A stretch of 64,000 bases of DNA, taken from assembly GCF_003334815.1 (NCBI RefSeq), contig NZ_QOWO01000015.1. One strand, written 5' to 3'. A program made the position numbers and the translations under genes. The notes beneath the pieces are model-generated. The model saw nothing but the letters and a program-made list of their open reading frames with translations, was not told where the DNA came from and did no database searches. Shown here one piece after another: positions 31,939 to 54,302 of the stretch (positions within the stretch are counted from its first letter, which is position 1; the number at the start of each line of letters is the position of its first letter). The stretch is from Escherichia coli (lineage in GTDB: Bacteria; Pseudomonadota; Gammaproteobacteria; Enterobacterales; Enterobacteriaceae).

Positions 31939-34128
31939 TCAGAATTGATACGTGCCGGTAATGCTGAAATTACGCGGTGTGCCGTAGACGATAGAACCTT
32001 CCACGTTGGTATCGTAGGTTTTGTCGAACAGGTTATTGACGTTCCCCTGTAACGAGAAGTTTTTCGTCACCTGGTAGCGGGTGAAGAGATCCACCAGCGC
32101 GTAGCTACCTTGCTCGGCGCGGAAGGTGCCATACGGCGTCACGGTGTCGGTATACACGCGATTTTGCCAGTTAACACCACCGCCGACCGTCAACTCTGGC
32201 ATGACAGGCAACCGATAGCTGGTGAACATTTTAACCGTGGTGCGTGGCAGATTAGGATTAACGGCGTTTCCTTCGTTATCCTCTGCAATATAGCGCGTTG
32301 CGCCAAATGTCAGCTGCCAGTTGTCGGTAATTGCGCCGTTGAGTTCAAATTCCACCCCTTTACTGACTGTCCCATCCACCGCTTTATAGGCGGTTTCGCC
32401 GTTGCTGCCGGGGATAGGTGTACCGGTGGACTGAGCGACATTATCCTGCTCAATACGGAAGATGGCTAACGTGGTGGTCAGACGGCTATTCATCCAGTCC
32501 GATTTCAGACCCAGCTCGTAGTTGTTACCGGTGATTGGAGCCAGATATTTGCCTGAACTGTCACGATCATTTTGCGGCTGGAAAATAGAGGTATAGCTGG
32601 CGTAGGTCGACCAGTTGTCATTGATGTCAAACACCAGACCAGCGTAAGGCGTGGTGTGGTTTTTCTCCATGCTGTAAGTCAGCGTATCAACCCGCCAGTT
32701 GGTATAACGTGCGCCGAGGATCAGATGCAGCGGATCGGCAAGGGTGACACGAGTGGCAGCATATAACGATTTCATATGTGTGGTATCGTCCTGCGCCAGG
32801 CTCTGTGGTGACCAGTCGGTTTGTGGGAAATTGCCATTAAAGTTGTAGAAACTGCCAATTTCATCCGGGAAGATGTTGGCCCATGAACTGAAGTAACGAT
32901 TGTTTTGTTTGCTGTAACTGCCACCAAACATTAGATTGTGCTGACGACCAAACAATTCATAACTACCGTCAGCGAACAAATCCAGCGCATCAACTTTACG
33001 TTTGCCACTGTTCCAACCGGTGCCGCCGACATAATCAAAGCCAGGTCCATAATTACTGTATGGCCCAACCAGCATACCATCCGCTTTGTTTACATAGGCA
33101 TCGACATACATCATTTTGCTGTCAAATTCGACTTCAGAGTGGGTGGCATTCAGTGTCGCTTGCCAGGTATCAGCAAACTGCTGCTTCAGGGTCATAAAGA
33201 CCTTGTTGATCTCTTTATCGTTGTACGCCCAGTCAGGTGCGGTACTGCGTGCGCGATCGTAACTGTTGCTGCTGCCATCAGTATTCCAGCGCGGTAAACC
33301 GCCCCAGGTAGGGCTATTAACATCAATGCGCTGATATTCGTAACCGGCTGAAAGCGTCGTAAGATCGCCTAAATCAGCATCGACAATGCCCGAGAAGAAG
33401 GTCTTTTCACTGTTGTAGCGGTCCAGCCATGAGTCGTTATTCTGGTAGCCGCCGACAATTCGCGCGCGGATTTTACCGTCTTCGGTGAGTGGGCTTTGTA
33501 AATCCGCCACATACCGTTCTTTGTTCCAGCTACCGTATTCCGCCGAGACATCGCCTTTAAATTCACGACTGGTCGCGTGTTTTCGAACCATATTAATTGC
33601 CGCAGATGGATTACCCGTCCCGGTCATGAGTCCTGTCGCGCCACGCACTACTTCTACGCGTTCAAAGAGTGCCATATCAGAAAGTGCGTCGCCCAGATTC
33701 CAGCGCGATTCAAAATAGGTGGGGATACCATCAACCATATAGTTATCGATCTGGAATCCGCGGGAATAATAAAGAGCACGATCGGAATCCGCCTGACTTT
33801 TGCTGATCCCCAGCGTGTTTTCCATCACTTCGCCCAGCGTTTGTAACTGCTGATCTTCCATCCGCTGCTGGCTAACAATAGTGACCGACTGAGGAATATC
33901 ACGTTGAGTCATCTGCATTTTGGTACCCGCAGAGGTAGACGTTACGCTGTAATCATTTTCGCCATCATCTGGAGCTGTGGCTGAACCCTCAACAATCACC
34001 GTTTCTTCAGTGGCTGGTGCAGCAAAAGCGGCAGAAGGTAATAGTGCCAGTGCTATGCAACCGGCAAGTAGTGACGGTTTGGTGATGGCTTGATATTGAT
34101 TATCCCTGTTAAATTGTGTTGAAAGCAT
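31939..34128 (-). CDS. fhuE: TonB-dependent ferric coprogen / rhodotorulic acid receptor FhuE, 729 aa
   Basis: 729-aa ORF with signal peptide, TonB-box region and C-terminal terminal aromatic residue (…ITGTYQF). Confidence 0.95.
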   Translation of the reverse strand: MLSTQFNRDNQYQAITKPSLLAGCIALALLPSAAFAAPATEETVIVEGSATAPDDGENDYSVTSTSAGTKMQMTQRDIPQSVTIVSQQRMEDQQLQTLGEVMENTLGISKSQADSDRALYYSRGFQIDNYMVDGIPTYFESRWNLGDALSDMALFERVEVVRGATGLMTGTGNPSAAINMVRKHATSREFKGDVSAEYGSWNKERYVADLQSPLTEDGKIRARIVGGYQNNDSWLDRYNSEKTFFSGIVDADLGDLTTLSAGYEYQRIDVNSPTWGGLPRWNTDGSSNSYDRARSTAPDWAYNDKEINKVFMTLKQQFADTWQATLNATHSEVEFDSKMMYVDAYVNKADGMLVGPYSNYGPGFDYVGGTGWNSGKRKVDALDLFADGSYELFGRQHNLMFGGSYSKQNNRYFSSWANIFPDEIGSFYNFNGNFPQTDWSPQSLAQDDTTHMKSLYAATRVTLADPLHLILGARYTNWRVDTLTYSMEKNHTTPYAGLVFDINDNWSTYASYTSIFQPQNDRDSSGKYLAPITGNNYELGLKSDWMNSRLTTTLAIFRIEQDNVAQSTGTPIPGSNGETAYKAVDGTVSKGVEFELNGAITDNWQLTFGATRYIAEDNEGNAVNPNLPRTTVKMFTSYRLPVMPELTVGGGVNWQNRVYTDTVTPYGTFRAEQGSYALVDLFTRYQVTKNFSLQGNVNNLFDKTYDTNVEGSIVYGTPRNFSITGTYQF

Positions 34129-34205
34129 TTGAAATCTCTTGGTTTATGTTGTCGTCAGGCTCATGCCGGAGGAGGGTGATGAGCGATTATATTTAGTGTG
34201 CGAAT

Positions 34206-34250
34206 AATTTTGTTTGTAAATGCAAATGAGAAATATACGCATTCATATTT
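34206..34250 (-). promoter_or_regulatory. Candidate Fur box in the fhuE promoter
   Basis: Tandem GATAAT-like hexamers (GTAAAT GCAAAT GAGAAA) 80-120 nt upstream of the fhuE start; motif match only. Confidence 0.3.
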
Positions 34251-34461
34251 GTCATGTAAACCAAACAGAGAATGTCTTTTCAGCGCATTCGCAGGCAGAA
34301 ATGGGAATAATGGCGATATATACGGCAGCAAAACGATTTTTTGCTTAAGAAATCGTGAGTTAAGGTTGAAAGAGCAGGTTTAACTCGACCATACTCTATA
34401 CTCGCAGTGTGGCGCGGCGTAGCATGGCGCAACGCATGGCTATTTGAAAAAGGAAAATGTC

Positions 34462-34821
34462 GTGGCAGAAGAAACTATATTCAGCAAAATTATTCGTCGT
34501 GAGATCCCCTCCGATATCGTCTACCAGGATGATCTGGTAACGGCGTTTCGCGATATTTCGCCGCAAGCGCCAACGCATATTCTGATCATTCCGAATATCC
34601 TCATTCCGACTGTGAACGACGTCTCAGCTGAGCATGAGCAGGCGCTGGGACGCATGATCACCGTAGCGGCAAAAATTGCTGAGCAAGAAGGTATTGCCGA
34701 AGATGGCTATCGTCTGATCATGAATACCAACCGCCATGGCGGACAAGAGGTTTACCACATCCATATGCACTTGTTGGGTGGCCGTCCGCTGGGACCAATG
34801 CTGGCGCATAAAGGTCTGTAA
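34462..34821 (+). CDS. hinT: Purine nucleoside phosphoramidase HinT (HIT family), 119 aa (GTG start)
   Basis: ORF-track frame 34444..34821; GTG 34462 gives [16 protein letters not shown] and the HIT motif HIHMHLLGG. Confidence 0.92.
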
Positions 34822-53844: not shown

Positions 53845-54302
53845 GGGCGGGACTTCCGTTTCCTGCGTGATTTTTTAGAGGAGGGCATACTTATTAATAA
53901 ACCGACGGCGATAAAAATAACGCCCATAATGCCGATAAACCCCCATTTAAAAAAATTAACCCACGGGTTATTTATCTCAGCCTTTTCAGGATGCCCGGGA
54001 GAATAATAAACATTAACTTTATCGCCTTCGCTGTCTTCATAAAAATCGCTGCCGATACTCGAATTGAAAATTAGCGTGTAATCTGGCGTCGGTCGAAAGG
54101 CAACGACGGGATACCACGAACCATCTTTACCCGTGCGATGAGAATGACTGGAGTGCCAGACGGTATCAACAATGACGCCTTCGGTATGAATCGCGTCTTT
54201 GCTATAGGTGAACTGGTTATAAAAGACAACAACAGAAATGAGGATCAGTACCAGACCGATACCGAGGAATATACGAAAGAAAACTTTACTGTCCTGACTC
54301 AT
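53841..54302 (-). CDS. ymfA: Inner-membrane protein YmfA, 153 aa
   Basis: ORF-track frame 53841..54311; ATG at 54302 gives [28 protein letters not shown]; ATGA overlap with ycfZ. Confidence 0.85.

Follow-up and report, generated by a model that had tools for sequence, protein, structure and literature searches.

The fhuE gene is a textbook Fur-repressed siderophore receptor gene. Several models of the Fur box are in use, among them a 7-1-7 model that is reportedly due to Baichoo and Helmann. Another is the 9-1-9 'M9' model of Chen et al. (2007; PMC2189734), a study in which overlap of the site with the promoter, an occlusion arrangement, is described as the norm for Fur. The classical E. coli Fur box, GATAATGATAATCATTATC, shares with the fhuE site an inverted-repeat architecture, the register of the hexamers and overlapping walkers spaced 6 bp apart. 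Like the classical box, the fhuE site overlaps an iron-uptake promoter (a predicted one in this case), shows iron-dependent occupancy, and is associated with repression. It differs in being degenerate, with 11/19 matches to the classical sequence, 13/18 matches to the 9-1-9 consensus and a score of 15.0 bits against a median of 20.9 bits, and the deviation of its right half from the consensus, GCGTAT on the fhuE strand, is conserved from genus to genus.

In strength, the fhuE site resembles the weak but validated operators of tonB (TATGATTGCTATTTGCATT) and fur (TGAGATAATGCGTATCATT), which score 13.5 bits each with the full model and 10.4-11.8 bits when left out of it, and it has sequence features in common with both, namely ATTTGCATT in tonB and AATGCGTAT in fur. 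All three sites overlap core promoter elements, those of fhuE being predicted. However, tonB and fur have published DNase I footprints (Chen et al., 2007, Table 3; PMC2189734), whereas the evidence for fhuE comes from ChIP-exo and expression. The fhuA, fepA, cirA, fiu, and fecA genes belong to the same regulon and follow the same logic as fhuE, which is found in the Fur-1 iModulon together with these other TonB-dependent receptor genes. Their sites reach 19-23 bits, compared with 15.0 bits for fhuE, and several of their promoters carry two separate ChIP-exo peaks, whereas that of fhuE has one. The fhuE site is already known, having been predicted at its exact coordinate since 2007 and covered by ChIP-exo; the present analysis, which fixes the core at 34225-34243, has little significance beyond annotation.

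The window, by which we mean the whole 64-kb stretch of E. coli DNA that was analysed, is numbered such that a window coordinate equals the NC_000913.3 coordinate minus 1127423. The spacer between fhuE and its divergent neighbour hinT (34129-34461, 333 bp) is 100% identical to that of K-12 MG1655, and a 601-bp stretch around the site is matched in all 5426 complete E. coli genomes, between annotated fhuE and hinT. The two flanking genes are as follows:

31939-34128, minus strand: fhuE coding sequence, a 729-aa open reading frame for the ferric coprogen/rhodotorulic acid outer-membrane receptor; the regulated gene
34462-34821, plus strand: hinT coding sequence, with a GTG start at 34462; the divergent neighbour, not Fur-regulated

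According to the original prediction, the interval 34206-34250 in the fhuE promoter holds a Fur site, with a run of three GATAAT-like hexamers as the best candidate. The three hexamers, each matching GATAAT at 4/6 positions, and the 333-bp spacer are all present as described:

34216-34221, plus strand: hexamer 1, GTAAAT
34222-34227, plus strand: hexamer 2, GCAAAT
34228-34233, plus strand: hexamer 3, GAGAAA

By itself, such a run is at chance level: 16 runs of three tandem hexamers with at least 4/6 matches are found on the two strands of the 64-kb window, and at least one turns up in 10.8% of 1000 spacer shuffles that preserve dinucleotides. Matching to the classical 19-mer consensus was also rejected as a means of locating the site, given that three positions tie at 11/19, and the caution with which the match had been called degenerate was justified.

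We instead scored the DNA with a symmetric 19-bp position weight matrix (PWM) built from 22 sites, with the consensus AATGATAATcATTATCATT, from which fhuE was left out. For training we took sites that are footprinted, gel-shifted or regulon-confirmed according to Chen et al. (2007; PMC2189734; Tables 3 and 4), the paper in which the fhuE site was also predicted. Coordinates of NC_000913.2 were converted to NC_000913.3 with an offset of +777 around fhuE, calibrated on gpmA, and of +1978 for the cir, exbB, bfd, and mntH training sites. The matches of interest in the spacer, none of which is assigned to a strand, are:

34225-34243, centre 34234: core Fur site, AATGAGAAATATACGCATT, 15.0 bits; as a 19-bp 9-1-9 inverted repeat it reads AATGAGAAA-T-ATACGCATT, with 13/18 matches to AATGATAATnATTATCATT
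34219-34237, centre 34228: left Fur walker, AATGCAAATGAGAAATATA, 6.9 bits, overlapping the core and 6 bp to its left
34231-34249, centre 34240: weak right Fur walker, AAATATACGCATTCATATT, 1.3 bits, overlapping the core and 6 bp to its right
34197-34215, centre 34206: weak secondary Fur-like match, TGTGCGAATAATTTTGTTT, 7.2 bits

The core site ranks first among 63,981 positions in the window and is also the best in the spacer, where the runners-up reach 7.2 and 6.9 bits; the PWM scan of the spacer that had been proposed along with the candidate thus finds no better Fur site elsewhere. Unlike the hexamer run alone, the full 19-bp inverted repeat is exceptional: 15.0 bits is attained in 1.1% of 5000 spacer shuffles. 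The 22 validated sites range from 10.4 to 28.3 bits when each is left out of the matrix, so that the fhuE site falls among them, although below their median of 20.9 bits and hence weaker than the classical operators. Three positions of its right half, ATACGC, differ from ATTATC. With centres at 34228, 34234, and 34240, the three walkers are spaced 6 bp apart and make up a 31-bp cluster at 34219-34249. Hexamers 2 and 3 form the forward-forward part of a classical 19-bp box, GCAAAT-GAGAAA-T-ATACGC, at 34222-34240, and the register of the predicted hexamers is the true forward-forward-x-reverse register of the Fur box. The original candidate was accordingly right in its register and in its second and third hexamers, but the core lies ~9 bp to the right of the run, past whose end it extends 10 bp through the predicted -10 hexamer, and the inverted right half, which overlaps that -10, had been missed; hexamer 1, with only its last three bases inside the conserved block described below, is marginal. 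As a calibration of such first readings, hexamers picked out by eye despite their degeneracy fell on the true operator and in the right register.

Outside the spacer, the second-best match of the window is AATAATAAACATTAACTTT at 54002-54020 (centre 54011; 12.3 bits), and a 10.3-bit Fur-like match, CTTGATATTGATTATCCCT, lies at 34089-34107 (centre 34098), inside codons 8-13 of fhuE. Several Citrobacter and Kluyvera orthologues have Fur matches of 11-13 bits located 19-26 nt before the ATG, which are candidate homologues of the match at 34098.

Chen et al. (2007; PMC2189734) listed a Fur site of 12.4 bits for fhuE at 1160880 of NC_000913.2, a coordinate that converts to 34234 in the window, the exact centre of the PWM core. 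Occupancy in vivo has been reported by Gao et al. (2023; PMC10164565), whose Dataset 2 holds an MG1655 Fur ChIP-exo peak, P31, at 1160863-1160895, which was assigned to fhuE and seen only under iron-replete conditions; according to these authors, the same peak was also reported by Seo et al. Their data set is in NC_000913.2 coordinates, as shown by the peaks at fiu, cirA, mntH, and yqjH, which enclose the coordinates given by Chen et al. The ChIP-exo peaks, neither of them stranded, map to the window as follows:

34217-34249: MG1655 ChIP-exo footprint P31, mapped with the +777 and 1127423 offsets
34221-34233: W3110 ChIP-exo peak P41, TGCAAATGAGAAA, at 1163221-1163233 of NC_007779.1, mapped by exact sequence match

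The interval named in the original prediction, 34206-34250, therefore contains the PWM cluster, the site of Chen et al. and both ChIP-exo peaks. No footprinting or gel-shift experiment in vitro on the fhuE site was found in the literature searched, and Chen et al. (2007; PMC2189734) do not have fhuE among the sites that they list as footprinted or gel-shifted.

Expression of fhuE depends strongly on Fur. In MG1655 Δfur, fhuE shows a log2 fold change of 5.02 (~32-fold up), and the values range from 3.0 to 8.4 across the seven other strains for which one is given (Gao et al., 2023; PMC10164565). Likewise, a fhuE promoter-lacZ fusion is repressed by Fur (Beauchene et al., 2015). In the same MG1655 comparison, hinT is unchanged (log2 fold change -0.17, p = 0.13; Gao et al., 2023; PMC10164565). 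A further peak of this data set, P32 (1161165-1161198, NC_000913.2), was present under both iron-replete and iron-starved conditions (Gao et al., 2023; PMC10164565). Its annotation there is 'intergenic', with hinT as the assigned gene, yet it maps to 34519-34552, within the hinT coding sequence. The PWM finds no good match beneath P32, and hinT expression does not change in Δfur.

Based on a sigma-70 consensus scan, we predict the following promoter elements:

34232-34237, minus strand: predicted fhuE -10 hexamer, TATATT, in the middle of the Fur core
34255-34260, minus strand: predicted fhuE -35 hexamer, TTTACA
34223-34227 (~34225), minus strand: presumptive fhuE transcription start, placed by promoter geometry ~7 nt after the predicted -10
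34366-34395, hinT side: promoter-like site, more than 120 bp from the Fur site

On the fhuE strand, 34000-34600 holds a single sigma-70-like promoter, TTTACA-17-TATATT, with 10/12 matches. A start at ~34225 would coincide with the edge of the Fur core and give a 5' UTR of ~97 nt, and together with the mid-core -10 it would make up the classical layout for repression by occlusion; a text search of the literature found no experimental transcription start for fhuE. Since it rests on a consensus scan, the overlap of the Fur site with the -10 and +1 is a predicted one. The distance of more than 120 bp between the Fur site and the promoter-like site on the hinT side is consistent with hinT being unregulated.

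We also asked how the site has been retained among relatives. An FhuE scan with one genome per species gave 54 loci, from Escherichia, Citrobacter, Klebsiella, Kluyvera, Raoultella, Enterobacter, Leclercia, Lelliottia, Buttiauxella, Mangrovibacter, Pantoea, Rahnella, and others, and the upstream regions of 51 were analysed. All 51 keep the 19-mer AATGCGTATATTTCTCATT (fhuE strand) or a variant with one to five differences, at 11.3-19.5 bits; it is the top Fur match in 46, another match scoring higher in the remaining five. The 19-mer lies 95-123 nt upstream of the ATG in 50/51 and 166 nt upstream in Rahnella, where the start codon is less securely chosen. When the promoter-proximal 230 bp were aligned, 34219-34243 was at least 80% identical to E. 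coli in the 47 non-Escherichia sequences, with the exception of a T/G polymorphism at 34229 and of position 34222. Within these 230 bp, this block and the -35 region (34255-34261) are the only long blocks conserved outside Escherichia, the -10 hexamer being at least 90% conserved and the -35 hexamer at least 95% identical in the 47 orthologous promoters. The left edge of the block falls exactly at 34219, which is the left edge of the 6.9-bit walker. Among the complete E. coli genomes, the 33-bp footprint is present in 5423/5426 (4374 identical, 927 at 95-99% identity and 122 at 90-95%), and three variants that were sampled retain 14.1-15.1 bits. The fhuE operator is therefore among the most conserved non-coding blocks of the locus across the Enterobacteriaceae.

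We conclude that 34219-34249 is, with little doubt, the Fur operator of the fhuE promoter, with its core at 34225-34243, where Fe2+-Fur would occlude the promoter; sequence match, iron-dependent occupancy in vivo, Fur-dependent repression, and conservation are the data that back it. Part of the conservation must stem from the -10 hexamer itself, and the block might then be core promoter only (-10, discriminator, and start), with Fur acting elsewhere or indirectly. This is highly improbable. It is true that the -10 lies mid-block, that the -35 is equally conserved, and that promoter elements alone give some conservation. However, the conserved positions extend past the -10 by 13 bp in the downstream direction (34219-34231) and by 6 bp in the upstream direction (34238-34243), over DNA for which RNA polymerase has little sequence preference, and a promoter function by itself leaves the downstream extension unaccounted for. 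Furthermore, the block is the best Fur PWM match in 64 kb, and two ChIP-exo data sets put Fur exactly there, the MG1655 peak being confined to iron-replete cells.

A literal reading of the original candidate would make the operator out of the three direct hexamers at 34216-34233 and give the sequence further right no role, which is very unlikely. On synthetic DNA, at least three GATAAT repeats are enough for a Fur footprint (summarised in Chen et al., 2007; PMC2189734), and the 13-bp W3110 peak coincides with hexamers 2 and 3. In contrast, the run by itself does not exceed chance, only half of hexamer 1 is conserved compared with at least 80% conservation of 34234-34243, the MG1655 footprint extends to 34249, and the 19-mer that includes the right half scores 15.0 bits versus 6.9 bits for the walker centred in the run. 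Barely credible is a roadblock by Fur at the downstream cluster in the 5' UTR (~34197-34221; centres 34206 and 34212), despite its walkers of 7.2 and 1.3 bits 6 bp apart and a minus-strand sequence at 34200 that agrees with the classical consensus at 11/19 positions. That cluster scores far below 34234, has no conservation outside Escherichia, varies within E. coli at 34213/34214 and lies outside the MG1655 ChIP-exo footprint of 34217-34249. We have accordingly rejected the secondary site centred at 34206 as the operator; weak, not conserved across genera and outside the footprint, it is probably no part of it.

For the operator at 34219-34249, the mechanism that we infer is occlusion of the promoter. 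When iron is sufficient, Fe2+-loaded Fur binds 34219-34249, probably as two overlapping dimers, a number suggested by the three walkers 6 bp apart. The -10 (34232-34237) and the presumptive start (~34225) would lie inside the bound stretch; covered by Fur, they would be closed to RNA polymerase, which would account for the repression of fhuE. When iron is scarce, Fur would depart and the TTTACA-17-TATATT promoter would fire. The divergent hinT gene, with a promoter-like site of its own, stays outside Fur control.

An extra layer of control on top of Fur, either a second DNA-binding factor that shares the operator or an RNA switch or sRNA target in the 5' UTR, is unlikely, though it is brought to mind by the near-invariant non-consensus bases (~20 genera), an upstream element, and a position-fixed hairpin. 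The departures from consensus, GCGTAT instead of GATAAT/ATTATC, are nearly invariant across about 20 genera. The upstream TGAAA-N-TTTCA-like element and the hairpin, which varies in sequence and ends ~27-31 nt before the ATG, are further conserved features of the promoter that seem not to have been described before.

The hairpin, GCUCAU-N14-AUGAGC, lies in the 5' UTR at 34157-34182 on the minus strand. In the 51 orthologous UTRs, a hairpin of differing sequence ends at a near-fixed distance from the ATG, mostly 26-33 nt before it; examples are GGGUUCAUCAC..GUGAU.GAAC in Citrobacter, CCGCGGCC..GGCCGCGG in Klebsiella/Kluyvera, and CCUCAG..CUGGGG in Leclercia. To judge from these sequences, the variation looks like covariation. 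The single-sequence z-scores of the orthologous hairpins are modest (median -1.2), and no T-run follows the stem. The E. coli 5' UTR folds no better than its shuffles as a single sequence (z = -0.41), and an Rfam scan of 33900-34600 gave no match up to E = 1.

The upstream element, CTGAAAAGACATTCTCTG, is located at 34271-34282 on the minus strand, ~50 bp upstream of the presumptive start, and is partly conserved as TGAAA..TT. In Citrobacter, Kluyvera, Enterobacter, and Buttiauxella, it resembles the inverted repeat ACTGAAACAATATTTCATT and reaches 5-12 bits with the Fur PWM; the E. coli copy scores -5.7 bits. The element may be an auxiliary Fur site that has decayed in Escherichia, or the site of another factor.

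A last observation concerns 34208-34226 (TTTGCATTTACAAACAAAA on the minus strand), at the very 5' end of the presumptive transcript. In other E. coli lineages and in many genera, this stretch is a palindrome, TTTGCAT-N4-ATGCAAA, which is broken in K-12 by two changes at 34213/34214.
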